A stretch of DNA of 64,000 nt from the IMG/VR virus record IMGVR_UViG_3300029267_002792. One strand, 5' to 3'. Below are positions 36,664 through 61,835 of the stretch, in pieces (position 1 is the first letter of the stretch; each line of letters starts with the position of its first letter). Position numbers and translations under genes: made by a program. The notes beneath the pieces were generated by a model. That model was not told the origin of the DNA. It made no database searches and saw only the letters and a list, made by a program, of their open reading frames with translations. The DNA is from a virus.

Positions 36664-37095
36664 CCGCCCCTTCTACCACATACCACGGGGATGGTCAATA
36701 CCCGCATGTAGAGGTAGAAGTCGTGGGCGGAGTCACATAGAAGTACACAAGGTTCGTTCCAGCGCTCCAGGTACTCGAGACGTCGATCGATGCCCGAGGT
36801 CGGCTGCGGCGGTGCGGCTCCGCAAACCTTCCCACGGGTCGGCCCTCCTTCTTGAACTCCTCCAACCACCTCAACCAGCACAAGGCCTCGGGGTTCCACT
36901 CCCCGTAGCTCGGAGGAAGAGCAGGGCGAAACACTCTCGACTTGAGCTGAGTTCGGGCGCGAACGTTGTGAGTAAGCCGAACCGGAGGTCTAGGAGATCG
37001 GTATTGGGTTCGCCTGTCGGTGAAGTTTTTTAGTCCTCGTACGTGCGACATCTGCGTCTAATATACGCTACCCAGAAACGAGAACACCATCAAAC

Positions 37096-37365
37096 AGGTC
37101 CATCCTCGCGCGTGCGGGAGAACCGCCTGAAGCGGAGAAGATCGCCCTGGTCCATCCTCACGCCTCACGCGTGCGGGGAACCGGGCACTGTAGCAGACTC
37201 CGCTCTCACAGCACCGGTCCATCCTCACGCGTGCGGGAGAACCACACGCCCGTGCGGAACTTCGAGGAGCGCGACGGGTCCATCCCCACGCGTGTGGGGG
37301 AACCTCACCGCCGATGATGTACAGGCCCTCGGAGGACGGTCCATCCCCACGCGTGTGGGGGAACC
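37096..37365 (-). CRISPR. Cas-less type I-E-like array: 5 repeats, 4 spacers
   Basis: 29-nt palindromic repeat GGTTCCCCCACACGCGTGGGGATGGACCG; three 32-nt spacers and one 24-nt; decays toward the left. Confidence 0.92.
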
Positions 37366-37370
37366 CCTGT

Positions 37371-37481
37371 GCCACGCTGAGCCGAAAAAAAACGGTTCTC
37401 CTCCACACACATGAGTTCCTCGTTCGAGACGAGGCAAGAACACCGCGCTCTCACGCAGTGCCACCGACTGGAATATCGGCA
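37371..37481 (-). repeat. CRISPR leader copy 1, identical inverted copy at 53819-53929
   Basis: 111-bp identity checked base by base. Confidence 0.9.
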
Positions 37482-53023: not shown

Positions 53024-53257
53024 CTATTCCACTTCCTCGATATCCCGAACTCGTCCGAACTTGAAGACGACCCTCATGTCCCGATACCACTCGATACCGC
53101 AGTCTCCACACACGAACGAGGCATTCATCGCGTTGCCGCCTACCTCGTCCTCATCCAGCTCATACTGGCCCCAGTCCTCGAAGACCTCTTCACCGCACCG
53201 TGGACACTTGTCTTCCAGGAGGCAGTGTTGGACGTGCAGCTCACTTAGCTTGGCCAT
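53024..53257 (-). CDS. small Zn-finger protein
   Basis: CPRC...CGDC. Confidence 0.5.
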   Translation of the reverse strand: MAKLSELHVQHCLLEDKCPRCGEEVFEDWGQYELDEDEVGGNAMNASFVCGDCGIEWYRDMRVVFKFGRVRDIEEVE

Positions 53258-53672
53258 TGTGGCGCTCCTCGGCGTAGTGATTGAAAAGCTCCTGTATGTC
53301 GTCGATCGGTCCCTTCTCCGGACCGTTGTAGATCGTGTAACCGTTTCTCTCCAACCATGAGAGGAAGTGCAGGAGAACGTCCGCGCGCTCGGTTGCTATT
53401 GTCTTGGCCACGTCCTCAAGGTGTTCGCTTCCGATGGGCTTGAGATCGCCCTCGATTGTGGCGGTCGCCAAGGCGTCTGCGATGGCCGTGAGATGTATTG
53501 AGAGTGTATTGGACAGGATCGAAACGAGCTGACCTCCCCCCATCCCGTCATTGGGTACGATAGCGAGGGCTTCCAAGGACTCGGAGGTGCCGCCTCCCCA
53601 GTCGAGGAACAAGGTTCCGTGACCTTCAGGCTCTTCACGCAATACCAATGTGATCCGGTGATGGGTGTACAT
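53241..53672 (-). CDS. hypothetical protein
   Basis: First gene after the leftward promoter. Confidence 0.5.
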   Translation of the reverse strand: MYTHHRITLVLREEPEGHGTLFLDWGGGTSESLEALAIVPNDGMGGGQLVSILSNTLSIHLTAIADALATATIEGDLKPIGSEHLEDVAKTIATERADVLLHFLSWLERNGYTIYNGPEKGPIDDIQELFNHYAEERHNGQAK

Positions 53673-53713: not shown

Positions 53714-53801
53714 CACATAACCCGGAATTGTTAGCGGTGTCAATAGCAATCGTCCCCGGAGCTGAAAGGTGGTTGACAATGCCTCCGCTTGTTGGTAATC
53801 T
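53714..53801. promoter_or_regulatory. divergent promoter pair at the strand switch
   Basis: Leftward TTGACA-N17-TTATGT; rightward TTGACA(53773)-N17-TAATCT. Confidence 0.55.
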
Positions 53802-53818
53802 CCAGAGCGTGAATCAGA

Positions 53819-53929
53819 TGCCGATATTCCAGTCGGTGGCACTGCGTGAGAGCGCGGTGTTCTTGCCTCGTCTCGAACGAGGAACTCATGTGTGTGGAGG
53901 AGAACCGTTTTTTTTCGGCTCAGCGTGGC
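53819..53929 (+). repeat. CRISPR leader copy 2
   Basis: Exact reverse complement of 37371-37481. Confidence 0.9.
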
Positions 53930-54010
53930 GCACGCGCGGGGATGGACCGGAGTACACGATGGACCAGAGATTTGCAGAGCAGGTTCCCCCGCACGCGTGG
54001 GGATGGTCTT
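53930..54010 (+). CRISPR. single-spacer mini-array
   Basis: 5'-truncated repeat GCACGCGCGGGGATGGACCG, 32-nt spacer, repeat GGTTCCCCCGCACGCGTGGGGATGGTCTT. Confidence 0.82.
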
Positions 54011-54193
54011 CCACGGAAGAGCGATCTCCCTCCCCGGGCACGGTGAACGGAGTACTGATAAGTACGTTCCAAGGAGCGGCGAAAAAGTGTCTGGGAGGCG
54101 CATTTTTTACTTGACTCTAGGGTTTGCGCTTGACACTCTGAACTCAGCGCACGGGAGTTAGGTTTTAGCTCAGAGCACCCGATAGAGCAGACA

Positions 54194-54334
54194 ATGACAC
54201 GGCAAGAACAGCGCAGGTTGAAGCATGCTAACGGAGGGTATCGACCGTCATGGTTGTGTATACCCTCCTGCGGCGCGAATACCGTCGTGACTTTTGCCGC
54301 CGATATTACGCTCCAGGAGGGTAGCCCAGGGTAG
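54194..54334 (+). CDS. putative 46-aa attenuator leader peptide
   Basis: MTRQEQRRLKHANGGYRPSWLCIPSCGANTVVTFAADITLQEGSPG; 42 distinct codons; stop abuts antiterminator; SD weak. Confidence 0.65.
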   Translation: MTRQEQRRLKHANGGYRPSWLCIPSCGANTVVTFAADITLQEGSPG

Positions 54335-54401
54335 CGGCTTTCGCACAAACGCAACATCCGCGAAAGCCGCCCCGGGAAGCCGAGGCGGCTTTTGACGTTT
54401 T
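54334..54401 (+). terminator. antiterminator/terminator switch before tRNA array
   Basis: GCGGCTTTCGC pairs with GCGAAAGCCGC, which alternatively pairs with GGCGGCTTTT followed by GACGTTTTT. Confidence 0.75.
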
Positions 54402-54437
54402 TGGGATTGAAGGTTTGGAGTTTGAAGTAGGACAACT

Positions 54438-54509
54438 GGGTCGCTAGCTCAATTGGCAGAGCAGCAGGCTTTTACCCTGAAGGTTCCCGGATCGTTGCCG
54501 GGGCGGCCC
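54438..54509 (+). tRNA. tRNA-Lys(UUU), atypical T arm
   Basis: GCAGG-CTTTTAC-CCTGA; T loop ATCGTTG. Confidence 0.65.
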
Positions 54510-54620
54510 ACCGATCGAGAACGAGACTCGCTAGGAGTCTCTCGGCGACGGCCGCTCGCTCTGTGACAACTGAGCATCTTCGACCCTGGGACTCTACCCA
54601 GGTCCCAGGGTCACTATTAT

Positions 54621-56136: not shown

Positions 56137-58284
56137 ATGGCAACAAAGAGCCCGACACAGCACCACTCCTACTGGGGAGTCGTCGCCAGCGCGAGTCAGC
56201 TCCCGAACGTGTCTGGAGCTACAATCCAGGACGCAGCCGTTGAGGCCGGGGATACCGCCTACGTTACTGGTTCCGGTACGTATCAGTGCGACGACGCGAC
56301 AGTTGGCGCAGCTGTCTGGTCATCCGTAGGCTCCGCCGTTGTAGGGATAGGGACCATAGCTGCACCAGCTGAGAAGGTCGTTTGGGCCTGGAACGGGGTA
56401 GACACCTCGCAGCTTGCAACTCCCCTGGATATCGGAGCCCCGACAGGGACGCTCACCGTCGCCCCCTTCCCCACGGGGTACGATACCCCGACTCGGAATC
56501 GGTTGCTGTATTCTCACACGGGCACGGGTGCGAACCGGATCTATCTCATCGACGACCTCCCGGACCCGATGCCGAATGTCTTCATCATCGAGATTGTCCT
56601 TGGGCCGCGAGGGGCCACACTGGGATCGAATACGACGGCATTCCTGTGGATCGCAGGGCAGGACACCACACACTTCCTGACTTTCAATCGCCACACGGAC
56701 AACGTCACACCGATTGTCCAGGCCTACAACAACATCTCCCCCACCGTCGGTGGGTGCTATCGGTTCCTGGGCGGGGCGATCTTGTCGAACGCGGACGAGG
56801 GACAGCTCATCCGCCTGCGCGTCGAAGTCCGCGACCCAGATACCTCGAACGACCCCGGGATCAGCATCGTTCCCCTCCATCCCAGCGAGCCGGACATTTC
56901 CCCTCACCGGTTCTCCGCGGACGCCATGACACCATCAGGCGGGGCAACGTGTCCCGCCGCTGGTTGGCACTCCTCCTGGAGATCGGGTGGCACGATCAAG
57001 AACATCGGAATCGCCTTCGAGGAGCGAGGTAATCCAGGCGTTGGCTACGTCTCCGATCTCAGAATCCTGGAGCCGATGCAGCAGATCACTACGACGGGCG
57101 GGGGCGGGACCTCGGTGGAGTACGACTGGGCCACAAACTACCTCTACACCCAGCAGAGCCCGGTCGTGGAGAAGACGATCGGGCACGGATACATGGACGG
57201 GGCGGACGTTGGCGGATCGATCTATTTCCGAGCCGTCCTCAACCCCCAGTTCTCGGTCGCTGGTTCTGCTCAGGTCAAGCTTTACGACGTTGGGCCGGCG
57301 CTGGGACCTCCGGCCGTGCCGACGCTGATCGCCACGCTCACAGTCAGTTCGAGCGGGTTGGCGTACGTACAGGAGGCGCTCTCAATCGCCGGCTCTCCAG
57401 GTCTCGGACAGATCGCGGATAGCGCCCGAATGTACGAAGTCACGGTCACGCAGACCTCGCAAGTCGGAGATACGGTCCTGGTAGGCTCGGCCGGGGTCTC
57501 TGACAGGGCGAACTTCAGAATCGAGCCTCCGGCAGTTGTCCCCGCCCAAACCGAACTGTGGGCGTGGGACAAGACCAGCGTGACTCAGCTCGGCGATGGT
57601 GTCGGAGGTCCTACGGCTTCGGACATCCCGACCACGGGCTCCCTCTCCGTAGGAGCTTTTCCGGCAGGCCTGGACTGCGCGCAAAAACCTCGACTTGAGT
57701 ATGCGCACACCAACGCTGGCGCGCTCGCGTTTTTCGAGATTCGGGACTTGCCGGACGACTTCCCCGATGACTTCGTGCTCGAATTCAAGTTGGGTCCCCG
57801 AGAGAGCAGTCCCGGAGGCCTCACAACCAATCCGCAGGTTGTATTGGCGTATCAGGACATCACACACTGGTTTTCGGTGTACCGTGGTGGCGGTCTGACC
57901 AACGCTCACCTCAAGTGTGCCAACAACAACAACGGGAAGACAGCCTACACCTACAAGACGACGATCACGTCCCTCCTGAACAATCAGGAGGGCAGCCACT
58001 ACCGCATCGCGTGCAGCTACAACGACCCGACGCCGACATCCGACCCGGGGTGTGAGTGGGTTCTCCAAATCCCAACGTACACCGGTCGTAGGCGAGCAAA
58101 CTCAACTGGGTGGAACGCAGTTGGAGGGGCAACTCCTCCCTCAACGTCTTGGGATGGCGGATGGAGGACGGGCGGTACGATCAAACGCATTGGAATTATG
58201 TTCGAGGAGATGGGAACTAGCCCGAACCCGGGGTTGGGCTGGATCTCTGACCTTCGCATCCTGTCTTGGGCGCCGCTGGGATAA
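56137..58284 (+). CDS. 715-aa protein with a duplicated ~240-aa beta-rich domain, possibly virion/adhesin
   Basis: Two copies of WAW..SQL...PFP.G.D...HT...DLPD..P...LGPR...WR.GGTIK.IGI.FEE...SDLRIL. Confidence 0.6.
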   Translation: MATKSPTQHHSYWGVVASASQLPNVSGATIQDAAVEAGDTAYVTGSGTYQCDDATVGAAVWSSVGSAVVGIGTIAAPAEKVVWAWNGVDTSQLATPLDIGAPTGTLTVAPFPTGYDTPTRNRLLYSHTGTGANRIYLIDDLPDPMPNVFIIEIVLGPRGATLGSNTTAFLWIAGQDTTHFLTFNRHTDNVTPIVQAYNNISPTVGGCYRFLGGAILSNADEGQLIRLRVEVRDPDTSNDPGISIVPLHPSEPDISPHRFSADAMTPSGGATCPAAGWHSSWRSGGTIKNIGIAFEERGNPGVGYVSDLRILEPMQQITTTGGGGTSVEYDWATNYLYTQQSPVVEKTIGHGYMDGADVGGSIYFRAVLNPQFSVAGSAQVKLYDVGPALGPPAVPTLIATLTVSSSGLAYVQEALSIAGSPGLGQIADSARMYEVTVTQTSQVGDTVLVGSAGVSDRANFRIEPPAVVPAQTELWAWDKTSVTQLGDGVGGPTASDIPTTGSLSVGAFPAGLDCAQKPRLEYAHTNAGALAFFEIRDLPDDFPDDFVLEFKLGPRESSPGGLTTNPQVVLAYQDITHWFSVYRGGGLTNAHLKCANNNNGKTAYTYKTTITSLLNNQEGSHYRIACSYNDPTPTSDPGCEWVLQIPTYTGRRRANSTGWNAVGGATPPSTSWDGGWRTGGTIKRIGIMFEEMGTSPNPGLGWISDLRILSWAPLG

Positions 58285-59291: not shown

Positions 59292-59412
59292 CGGCCGAAT
59301 GCTCGATGGGACTACATAGGTTCAACTCCTTTATCCGCCGCCAAGGCCCCGCACGGGGCCGCTCTATGGCGGATGCCCTTCGGGGGCATGTCTCATCATC
59401 CCTTGTCGGCCG
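59292..59412 (+). ncRNA. Y-RNA-like Y5 with multi-hairpin insert
   Basis: CGGCCGAATGC..GGGACTACAT...CTTGTCGGCCG. Confidence 0.78.
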
Positions 59413-59415
59413 TTT

Positions 59416-59487
59416 GCCGGAGAGATCCTACGGTTGGGTGTCAGCCTTCCAAGCTGATTGCAGCGGGTTCGATTCCCGTCTCCGGCT
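59416..59487 (+). tRNA. tRNA-Gly(UCC)
   Basis: Loop CTTCCAA, U73. Confidence 0.88.
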
Positions 59488-59489
59488 CC

Positions 59490-59640
59490 GGACCTCGAAT
59501 GCTTAGGTGGGATTACATAGCAATTCGAGTCTAATCGATAGATAGGAGGTTCGATTCCTCCCCGGCCTGCCGGTCCTCCAGGACCACAATTCTAGGCCGG
59601 AAGCTAAATGGGAATAGTCTCACCCCCACTTGTCGAGGTC
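59490..59640 (+). ncRNA. Y-RNA-like Y6, directly upstream of Ro60
   Basis: GGACCTCGAATGC..GGGATTACAT...CTTGTCGAGGTCC; T arm, closed acceptor-like stem, D-like arm. Confidence 0.8.
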
Positions 59641-59735
59641 CTCTCTTGACTATCTCAGATGAGGTCGCTTCTCGGTATTCGGAGGAGATTGGCCTGGCCA
59701 TGGAGCGCCACACTATTGGTGGCAGGGAGGTCATC

Positions 59736-61445
59736 ATGGCAAACAAGAGCCTGTTCGGATCGTCCCGCGGGCGGACGGTCAAGGCAACGGATGCAGTGAA
59801 CGCGGCCGGAGGGAAGGCCTACGCCCTCGGCCCCGAGCAAGCTCTGGCACGGTACGCTGCCACGGGGTGCTTCTCCAACACGTACTACGTGAAGGCCGAA
59901 GATCACCTGAACCAGGTGCTCGACCTTGCCGGGGAGTGTGATTCCGAGTTCATCGCGAAGCTGGCGATCTTCGCTCGGAAGGAAGGTCACATGAAGGACA
60001 TGCCGGCCTTCCTGGTAGCGACGCTGGCAGAGCGTTCTGGGCGTTGGTCCCAGGAGGCCCAAGGGCTTCGTCGGAAGGCCAAAGCGTCCGAGGGCTCGAA
60101 CGTTGAGCAGCTCACAAAGGACGCCATTCAGCTGGAAGACAAGGCCTACAAGGCTAGCGCAGCTCTCAAGGCCTCCTTCCCGATCGTCATCGACAACGGG
60201 AAGATGCTGTTCAACTTCGTCCAGATCATGCGGAGCGGGAAGCTTGGCCGGAAGTCCCTAGGGGCAGGTCCCCGCGACCTGATCCGCGGCTTCTTCGCCC
60301 GGAACCAGCCGAACTGGCTCTTCCGCCAGCTCTCAGTTGGTACGGACCCATCGGTTGCTGACATCATCAAGATGGTCCACCCGAAAGCAACCACGCCCGA
60401 GCACGACGCGCTGTTCCGCTACTTGATCGGGAAGGCCGAGACTGACAAGAGAAAGAAGGGTTGGAAGGACCTGCCACCCCTCGTGAAGGAATTCGAGGAG
60501 TGGAAGCGAGACCGGTCCCTGCCGGCTCCTGCAGTCGACTTCCAACTGCTCACGGCAGCACCTCTCACGGGTGCGCAGTGGGCTCAAATCTTCCGCAAGG
60601 GTCAGTGGCACTTCATCCGGCAGAACCTCAACACGGCCATTCGACGGGGAGCGCTGAAGGCCGATCCAGGGTTGGAGGAGTTCATCGCGGAGAGGCTTCA
60701 GGATGAGAACATCATTCGCAAGGCGCGGGTCATGCCTCATCAGCTGCTCTCTACTTACAAGCACATCAAGAGCGACGTTCCCCGGAGCATCGTGGATGCG
60801 CTTCACGACGCCATGGAACTCGCTGTAGTGAACGCGCCCGTGGCCGAAGGTCGAACACTCGTTGTTGTTGACGTCTCCGGATCGATGGGAGGCTCAATCA
60901 CGGGTTGGAGAAGTGGCGTACCAGCGTCCAAGATCAAGTGCATCGACGTGGCCGCGCTGCTCTCGGCCGCTATCGTTCGGAAAAACCGAGACTCGGCCGT
61001 GCTTCCGGTCGATACGCACGTGCATTCGAGCTTCCGGCCCGAACCGCGGAACCCGATCCTCACCGAAGCTAGCCGGCTTGCCCGGTTCGGCGGAGGTGGG
61101 ACTGCGCTGTCAGCGGCGTTCGCGTACGCAAACCAGCGGAGAATCAAGGTCGATCACGTGGTAGTAATCTCCGATCAGGAGTCGTGGGCTGACCGTGGGT
61201 ACTACGGAAGCGGAACCGCCCTCATGCAGGAGTGGGAGAAGCTACGGAGCCGGAACCGGAACGCGAAGCTGGTGTGCCTCGACATCGTGCCCGGGAACAC
61301 TCATCAGATCGACGGTTCCCACAAGGAGATTCTGCAAGTCAGTGGGTGGAACGACTCGGTGTTCAAGGTCATCTCCGCCTTTTTGAAGGGTGATGCTGAC
61401 TCGTGGGTCGACATGATCGAGAGCATCGATCTTGCAGTGAACTGA
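59736..61445 (+). CDS. rsr: Ro60/Rsr (TROVE plus VWA) RNA-binding protein
   Basis: Start MANKSLF after AGGGAGG; VNAAGGKAY, QIMRSG..GRKSLG, RQNLNT, VDVSGSM, ISDQESW. Confidence 0.93.
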   Translation: MANKSLFGSSRGRTVKATDAVNAAGGKAYALGPEQALARYAATGCFSNTYYVKAEDHLNQVLDLAGECDSEFIAKLAIFARKEGHMKDMPAFLVATLAERSGRWSQEAQGLRRKAKASEGSNVEQLTKDAIQLEDKAYKASAALKASFPIVIDNGKMLFNFVQIMRSGKLGRKSLGAGPRDLIRGFFARNQPNWLFRQLSVGTDPSVADIIKMVHPKATTPEHDALFRYLIGKAETDKRKKGWKDLPPLVKEFEEWKRDRSLPAPAVDFQLLTAAPLTGAQWAQIFRKGQWHFIRQNLNTAIRRGALKADPGLEEFIAERLQDENIIRKARVMPHQLLSTYKHIKSDVPRSIVDALHDAMELAVVNAPVAEGRTLVVVDVSGSMGGSITGWRSGVPASKIKCIDVAALLSAAIVRKNRDSAVLPVDTHVHSSFRPEPRNPILTEASRLARFGGGGTALSAAFAYANQRRIKVDHVVVISDQESWADRGYYGSGTALMQEWEKLRSRNRNAKLVCLDIVPGNTHQIDGSHKEILQVSGWNDSVFKVISAFLKGDADSWVDMIESIDLAVN

Positions 61446-61547: not shown

Positions 61548-61689
61548 TGAGCCGAATGCTTAGTGGGAGTACATTGGCATTCATAGCCCGTGCAGTGAAG
61601 GTTCAAGTCCTTCCCACCCGATCTCTGACGGGTGGTAGCCCAACTGGTAGAGGCGCGAGAAACGTCTCTCACGCTCACTTGTCGGCTCA
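61548..61689 (+). ncRNA. Y-RNA-like Y7 (YrlA-type permuted tRNA module)
   Basis: Y stem; T arm GAAGG-TTCAAGT-CCTTC, closed acceptor CCACCCG/CGGGTGG, D arm TAGCCCAACTGGTAGAGGC. Confidence 0.85.
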
Positions 61690-61695
61690 ATTTTT

Positions 61696-61831
61696 GGACC
61701 GAATGCTTCGTGGGATTACATCGCCTGTCAAGCGAGAGGTTGCAGGTTCGAGCCCTGCCCGCTGCCCTGGTGGACGCGGTAGCTCAATTGGAAGAGCGCT
61801 AAAACGTCGTCTCACACCTACTTGTCGGTCC
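61696..61831 (+). ncRNA. Y-RNA-like Y8 (permuted tRNA retaining GUC anticodon arm)
   Basis: Y stem; TCGC-CTGTCAA-GCGA, T arm, closed acceptor, D arm. Confidence 0.85.
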
Positions 61832-61835
61832 ATCT

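Follow-up and report, generated by a model that had tools for sequence, protein, structure and literature searches.

A predicted leader-peptide attenuator encoding every amino acid ahead of a phage tRNA array

The question raised by the locus described here is what a short open reading frame (ORF) encoding all 20 amino acids is doing directly ahead of a tRNA array in a phage genome. The role and timing of large phage tRNA arrays have been under debate for decades; such arrays have been proposed to compensate for codon usage, to replace host tRNAs that are degraded, or to evade defences that target tRNAs (PMC10264068, PMC11555353, PMC11464382). The stretch of DNA analyzed (64,000 nt of IMG/VR virus record IMGVR_UViG_3300029267_002792, hereafter the window) had been described in a sequence-only reading as carrying a candidate attenuator, the leader peptide of which would sample almost the whole genetic code. 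In the reading that we favour, to which we assign a probability of about 0.65 and which is largely supported in silico, the leader would be a ribosome-mediated (leader-peptide) transcription attenuator gating the phage tRNA array, with a peptide stocked with every amino acid.

The features of the locus are collected in Table 1. Genes upstream of the leader unit lie on the minus strand, the nearest at 53241-53672. The window also contains a phage-borne CRISPR array on the minus strand (37094-37481; five type I-E-like repeats at 37094-37365 with a spacing of about 61 nt, plus a leader with a TTGACA box), and 114 nt of this leader recur as an inverted copy (99% identical; 37368-37481 vs. 53819-53932) at the head of a mini-array of two repeats (53775-54006, plus strand), which lies just upstream of the leader unit of the tRNAs. 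An A-run, hairpin and T-run equivalent to those of the window precede the TTGAC box in all relatives (see below), and a suggested role for this element is to insulate the leader unit from the transcript of the CRISPR mini-array. The boxes that follow are promoter-like, with a non-canonical -10 element: CTTGAC was invariant among the relatives compared, and 17-19 nt later it was followed by CAC(N)3T, or by TAGCTT in L059. A scan with the sigma-70 consensus called no promoter at the leader. The Shine-Dalgarno sequence of the ORF is weak and not conserved (-2.2 kcal/mol in the window and -4 to -6.6 kcal/mol at poor spacing in relatives, against about -7 kcal/mol for those candidate starts of long ORFs that score best); the site of L059 is better, and L017 and L022 could be nearly leaderless.

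Table 1. Coordinates of the features of the leader unit and its surroundings in the window.
Feature	Coordinates	Strand	Description
CRISPR mini-array with duplicated leader	53819-54006	+	
Terminator-like hairpin and T-run	54087-54108	+	Stem 54087-54101 found by scan, then T-run
Promoter-like boxes	54111-54139	+	TTGACT 54111-54116, 17 nt, CACTCT 54134-54139; second TTGACA 54130-54135
Leader ORF	54194-54334	+	ATG to TAG, 46 sense codons, 42 distinct, all 20 amino acids
ACCCTCC inside ORF	54262-54268	+	Complementary to GGAGGGT 54316-54322; paired in full-leader MFE fold
GCCGCC (Ala-Ala codons)	54296-54301	+	Repeats the bottom of the terminator 5' arm; can pair with 3' arm GGCGGC
CAGGAGGGTA	54314-54323	+	Invariant in 15/15 family members, including three found by profile
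Antiterminator 5' strand	54325-54344	+	CCCAGGG, stop TAG and segment A (GCGGCTTTCGC); MFE and ensemble folds
Antiterminator 3' strand	54360-54376	+	Segment B plus CCCCGGG; overlaps terminator 5' arm
Intrinsic terminator (predicted)	54366-54402	+	Stem 54366-54375 with 54380-54389, loop GAAG, TTTT GACG TTTTT
tRNA-Lys(UUU), first gene of the array	54438-54512	+	ARAGORN and Rfam

The array of the window comprises 36 tRNA genes from 54438 to at least 63535, with a Ro60-like gene and weak YrlA-like matches interleaved among them. Four such sub-threshold matches to YrlA (Y RNA-like; 26-43 bits, gathering score 69), at 59292-59642 and 61549-61834 on the plus strand, lie to either side of a 599-residue protein containing a Ro60 vWA domain (59646-61445, plus strand). 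Also inside the array, a 715-residue ORF (56137-58284, plus strand) gave neither a Pfam match nor relatives in viral contigs; its two halves are alike and W-A-W and I-G-I-x-F-E-E motifs recur in it, hinting at an internal duplication.

Recounting the leader ORF confirmed the composition that had drawn attention to it, i.e. all 20 amino acids in 46 codons, 42 of them distinct and only CAG, TTG, GGG and GCC used twice. All four Thr and all four Gly codons are used, Gln, Glu, Asn and Cys are each represented by both codons, and ATA is also present. When the count was compared with all 48,814 stop-free 46-codon segments of the 64 kb (mean 28.9, SD 2.8), as the sequence-only reading had proposed, the leader ORF ranked first, and the next independent loci reached 39 distinct codons. 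The exact occupancy null for 46 uniform draws from 61 codons gave P(>=42) = 1.1e-5. The effect is frame-specific, since the remaining two frames of the same interval score only 33 distinct triplets, an ordinary value. All 20 amino acids were found in ten of the 602 small ORFs of the window, the leader ORF being the shortest of the ten. Taken alone, the oddity in codon diversity is post hoc, amounts to roughly 0.01 across the window and is unconvincing; the case rests on comparative evidence.

Relatives were sought in viral and metagenome contigs with patterns derived from CAGGAGGGTA and from the loop region of the terminator, both of them invariant, and further members with a profile search based on the peptide alignment; neither type of search was conditioned on amino-acid composition. 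A search of viral contigs with the neighbouring proteins of 143 and 715 residues found nothing. For the protein of 143 residues, a homologue of 58% identity lies on a contig of 169 kb, and the upstream region of this contig (L001) aligns with the leader unit of the window, ORF and hairpins included. Altogether 14 further distinct homologues were recovered, all on metagenomic phage contigs, giving 15 members in about 9 lineages with peptide identities of 21-98% (21-55% between lineages). Among GenBank phages, blastn gave a tRNA match only, and tblastn with the peptide only chance matches. Six pattern matches in genome contigs all fell in unrelated coding sequence, others were judged non-homologous (L008/L010/L013 and L014, these with the terminator module only, L016/L023/L026, L019/L028, L025 and L029-L031), and the distant DUF5662 loci L045-L056, with no adjacent tRNA arrays, were unusable for extending the test. 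The terminator module (GCCGCCCGGGAAACCGAGGCGGC plus T's) occurs in the unrelated phage contigs L008/L010/L013 and L014 without leader ORF or tRNAs, and looks like a reusable cassette in some host group.

The order of elements was the same in every locus: terminator-like insulator, CTTGAC box, ORF, hairpin, GC-rich terminator and, at the head of a syntenic array with as many as 41 tRNAs, the first tRNA; the array of L001 covers all 20 amino acids. Both the ORF and its position directly ahead of the array are thus conserved across about 9 divergent lineages. The first tRNA is Lys-UUU in most of them (the window, L017, L018, L020, L022, L027, L057 and others) and Tyr in the L009 group. In the relatives it starts 5-40 nt after the T-run, with exceptions that carry inserts, such as L059, where about 290 nt separate the terminator from the first tRNA called. 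GC-rich inserts with hairpins, 70-290 nt long, lie between terminator and first tRNA in L001 (9420-9500, minus strand), L007 (2042-2105, minus strand) and L059 (2700-2995, plus strand). Because the tRNA begins only 5-12 nt after the T-run in several relatives, these have no space for a separate tRNA promoter, so that the first tRNAs at least have to be transcribed through the terminator.

Leader ORFs were 45-51 codons long across the 15 sequences, their length differences corresponding to whole codons; the positions of ATG and stop were conserved, and frame 0 was the sole frame open in 12/12 sequences checked. The pN/pS ratio was 0.5-0.8, and residue identity is therefore weakly constrained. 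Judged from these alignments, whole-codon indels, a single open frame and weak constraint on residues are what one expects of a regulatory leader rather than of a folded protein.

The amino-acid composition behaved differently from the residue sequence. All 20 amino acids were encoded by 14 of the 15 members, the remaining one (L057) being without Asp only, and among the three members found by profile alone two had 20 and one 19. Such completeness is rare in the background: it was observed in 0.47% of 46-residue segments of long ORFs in these phages, in 0/117 other ATG ORFs of 43-50 codons at these loci, and at a rate of 0.9-2.4% under iid null models. The positions of His, Tyr, Phe, Asp, Ile and Asn differ between lineages, and in L022 and L027 the sole Ile arose independently at the Ser/Thr position of the C-terminal motif, the usual Ile having been lost. 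Seven to nine amino acids occur exactly once per leader, and there are no codon runs.

In order to allow for shared descent, identical columns were held fixed and changed columns alone were redrawn. The chance of keeping all 20 amino acids was then 0.002-0.10 per inter-lineage edge, with a product of about 3e-10 over the most favourable spanning tree. When residues were instead shuffled within alignment columns, which preserves the residue pool of each site, a permuted sequence contained all 20 in 9-12% of cases; 7/7 complete sequences were obtained in 0/100,000 trials and at least 8/9 in 0/60,000 (P < 1e-5). These comparisons support selection on the all-20 composition, which would be kept by compensating changes.

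The same did not hold for codons. Given its peptide, the ORF of the window has an exceptional diversity of synonymous codons (P = 0.0008 with uniform synonyms, 5e-5 with phage usage), and that of L018 is mildly unusual (P = 0.026), but in the ten other members among the 12 tested the diversity was ordinary (P = 0.16-0.99). Pan-codon sensing was therefore rejected as a trait of the family. The expectation that related phages would carry short, divergent ORFs with hairpins ahead of their tRNA arrays was borne out, while the expected codon diversity was not shared. The conserved property is one of every amino acid (pan-amino-acid) and not pan-codon, and the pan-codon claim is best read as ascertainment over a real pan-amino-acid trait, because the window had been picked for its codon diversity.

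The RNA downstream of these codons can form two competing structures. Segment A (54334-54344) is perfectly complementary to segment B (54360-54370), as had been proposed, and B overlaps the 5' arm of the terminator stem. This stem consists of 10 positions (GCCGCC(C)CGG with CCG(A)GGCGGC; nine pairs and one C.A mismatch) with a GAAG or GAAA loop followed by U's, 3-6 of them in most lineages. The terminator of the sequence-only reading had captured the bottom of the stem, GCCGCC with GGCGGC, and missed its upper part. A local hairpin at 54375-54393 from a consensus scan was rejected as the terminator, as relatives have an A.C mismatch there. The terminator was found in all members and its stem in 12/12 sequences of the RNAalifold consensus; the basal pair covaries (AU in eight, GC in two and CG in one).

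In the alternative structure, the last codons of the ORF (CCC-N-GGG), the stop and segment A pair with B and with the CCCCGGG of the terminator 5' arm. Antiterminator helices were predicted at -25 to -37 kcal/mol, against -18 to -23 kcal/mol for the terminator formed with a ribosome at the stop. The sequence of the inner hairpin varies and the stems are lineage-specific; the ORFs of L027 and L012 are extended by two codons, and this extension provides the strand complementary to the terminator arm. On fixed columns, 81.8% of cells could pair in the antiterminator, vs. 32-52% when the columns were slid. A:B showed one compensatory change (T-A to C-G, window vs. L001 group). Covariation of the antiterminator was weak on fixed columns because the register differs by lineage and the outer strands are invariant, and base-pair covariation was sparse overall because the key strands are nearly invariant. 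The alternative pairings themselves are conserved across the aligned lineages. A hairpin of 6 bp (54377-54391) is left over in the antiterminated fold of the window.

The influence of a translating ribosome was modelled with equilibrium folds and an assumed footprint that hides as much as 12 nt beyond the first base of the A-site codon. When the A site was placed 10 codons ahead of the stop, P(terminator) was about 0 in 14/15 members (0.11 in L009), and it stayed low until 6-7 codons before the stop in most of them, the L009 group being less clean. In ribosome-free RNA it was about 0 in 13/15 members (0.27 in L012 and 0.97 in L009, which retains the terminator in its ribosome-free equilibrium fold). 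It was about 1 with the ribosome in the last 2-3 codons or at the stop; the 5' strand of the antiterminator is masked when the A site holds the stop or one of the last two sense codons. Shuffling the end of the ORF and the spacer gave a P(terminator) of about 0.95, and only 0-3% of shuffles were as low as the natural sequences. The three members found by peptide homology have variant terminator sequences and the same predicted switch. The direction anticipated from the window, i.e. termination with a ribosome at the stop and readthrough with a stall upstream, was thus reproduced by the constrained folds of nearly all members.

Two further elements may contribute. A Shine-Dalgarno-like GGAGG within CAGGAGGGTA ends 7 nt before the last sense codon, and its CCTCC (CCUCC) partner is kept in all lineages, mostly about 50 nt upstream and immediately 3' in L009/L012. 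The invariant GGAGG may be a hold or pause site that keeps the terminating ribosome over the antiterminator strand and is masked in free RNA. When the 3' part of the leader is folded free of ribosomes, the GCCGCC at 54296-54301 pairs with 54384-54389 (window and most relatives), and in the full-length leader fold of the window its partner is instead the 5' end of the ORF; from these folds, a role in the switch would be conceivable.

A translated sensor could act through an output other than the predicted antitermination, such as Rho-dependent polarity, a stringent-like shut-off of tRNAs on stalling, or control of RNA stability or processing. The branch formed by L009, L012 and L061 has no U-tract after the stem, and classical intrinsic termination is therefore doubtful in it. 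Moreover, some members have amino acids confined to the last few codons, where the hairpin model gives weak or no sensing: L022 and L027 carry their sole Ile within the last 3-5 sense codons, where the equilibrium model predicts termination on a stall, and in L024 and L020 the sole Gly apart from that of the final codon is placed 4 codons before the end, with a modelled P(terminator) of about 0.33. Most lineages, however, have a canonical GC stem followed by 4-6 U, and in nearly all members the exclusive pairings depend on ribosome position such that a stall means readthrough, which makes a different output improbable.

It is also quite improbable that the ORF encodes a small protein of 45-51 residues with a function of its own (e.g. 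in regulation or as a partner to the tRNA/Ro60 module), while hairpin and terminator end a short transcript or are ordinary punctuation. Such a protein would account for the conservation of the ORF, of its C-terminus in particular (QEG-S/T-P/S-G, strongly conserved), and for a W..C motif, and gene callers did predict the ORF in some contigs (P0005-P0007 and P0011). But the range of pN/pS values and identities of 21-55% between lineages fit a folded functional protein poorly, the product had no Pfam match, and the conserved C-terminal codons coincide with RNA pairing strands. Nor would it explain why all 20 residues are retained through compensating changes, why the last codons and stop form a strand competing with the terminator in every lineage, or how the tRNAs would be transcribed in the relatives that have no room for a promoter after the terminator. 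An untranslated structured leader or processing signal (e.g. RNase P/E entry or promoter-proximal pausing), with frame and composition as by-products of RNA constraint, would suit the unusually stable fold of the full leader (z = -3.06), the concentration of conservation in the pairing strands and the weak ribosome-binding site, but is very improbable, as it predicts neither whole-codon indels and a single open frame in all members checked, nor a conserved ATG and stop, nor the retention of all 20 amino acids with relocating rare residues in the column permutations.

Under the attenuator reading, we infer from the models that the ORF is translated, that termination takes place and that the outcome responds to tRNA charging. 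Transcription would start at the conserved TTGAC promoter and proceed through the 46-codon ORF. With smooth translation to the end, the ribosome would cover the last codons, the stop and segment A. Segment B and CCCCGGG would then be available to the downstream arm for the GC-rich terminator, and transcription would stop 35-45 nt before tRNA-Lys(UUU). With the ribosome absent, or held 6-10 or more codons upstream by any scarce aminoacyl-tRNA (starvation, tRNA cleavage and a mismatch in codon supply being possible causes of the stall), the end of the ORF and A would pair with B and the terminator 5' arm, the terminator would be blocked and RNA polymerase would read into the tRNA genes. Because the output consists of tRNAs, of all 20 specificities in L001, the outcome would be a negative feedback on decoding capacity.

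A tentative and rather doubtful extension is that the switch serves as an alarm for defence or damage and not as a nutrient sensor. An attack on the host tRNA pool, for example by anticodon nucleases of PrrC, PARIS or retron-effector type, would arrest the ribosome on the leader and switch on the whole replacement set of tRNAs, headed in most lineages by Lys(UUU), together with the embedded Ro60/Y-RNA module, and the 42 codons of the window lineage would extend the sensing to isoacceptors. tRNA-Lys(UUU) is the classic target of PrrC-type and PARIS tRNA nucleases.

If the attenuator reading is true, the phage would probably raise its own tRNA output when ribosomes slow at almost any codon, and a leader that monitors how every amino acid is decoded would give concrete form to the hypothesis that tRNA production is demand-driven and self-limiting. 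It would also be a rare case of selection on the composition of a peptide, one of each amino acid, and not on its sequence, and this composition provides a simple criterion to search for similar switches in other phages.

The leaders trpL, hisL, pheL, leuL and thrL and the multivalent leader of ilvGMEDA sense one to three amino acids through tandem cognate codons and regulate the matching biosynthetic genes. The phage leader resembles them in having a short ORF, a 2:3 antiterminator competing with a 3:4 terminator, and a ribosome that at the leader stop masks segment 2, giving termination, and that on an upstream stall allows readthrough; the distance from stop to U-tract is about 60 nt, close to that of trp. 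It shares with attenuators the conserved short leader ORF, the terminator before the first gene with no intervening promoter and, in silico and at equilibrium, a mutually exclusive antiterminator that depends on ribosome position. Enrichment or tandem runs of regulatory codons are absent and the leader is a variant in that respect: it has all 20 amino acids in place of runs, and tRNAs as targets. In contrast to classical leaders, the ribosome-free phage leader is predicted to read through and not to super-attenuate. T-box riboswitches also couple tRNA charging to the choice between terminator and antiterminator ahead of translation-related genes, but they bind one specific uncharged tRNA directly and do not need translation. 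A search of 54100-54437 against Rfam (E <= 1) matched no family, T-box included.

The closest parallel is the mycobacterial whiB7 uORF. The sequence-only reading had considered a general translation-stress attenuator to be undescribed; the broad-sensor principle is not new, because the diverse whiB7 uORF has already been shown experimentally to act as one, and that claim is therefore not supported (PMC10274678). The whiB7 uORF's amino-acid composition was experimentally shown to set the starvations sensed; the uORF of M. smegmatis holds 19 of the 20 amino acids, and that of M. tuberculosis is without several (PMC10274678). Both systems place a diverse uORF before a Rho-independent terminator, with efficient translation leading to termination and a stall to the antiterminator, and both would be broad sensors of translation stress. 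They differ in that the whiB7 uORF regulates a transcription factor on a bacterial chromosome, whereas the phage leader precedes tRNA genes, the output of which would feed straight back on the quantity sensed. In addition, the whiB7 uORF is enriched in Ala and has no conserved amino-acid coverage, while the full coverage of the phage family appears to be selected. We know of no sequence relationship between the two. With tRNAs as its downstream genes and Ala at 5/46 residues of its ORF, the phage leader works like a whiB7-type attenuator and is not a member of that group, which is defined by an Ala-enriched uORF ahead of whiB7 in Actinobacteria. Full-text literature searches turned up no published account of tRNA genes being controlled by a leader peptide. 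The feature that looks new is that, in a conserved family of phages, full amino-acid coverage is selected in its own right and the genes predicted to be regulated form a tRNA array.
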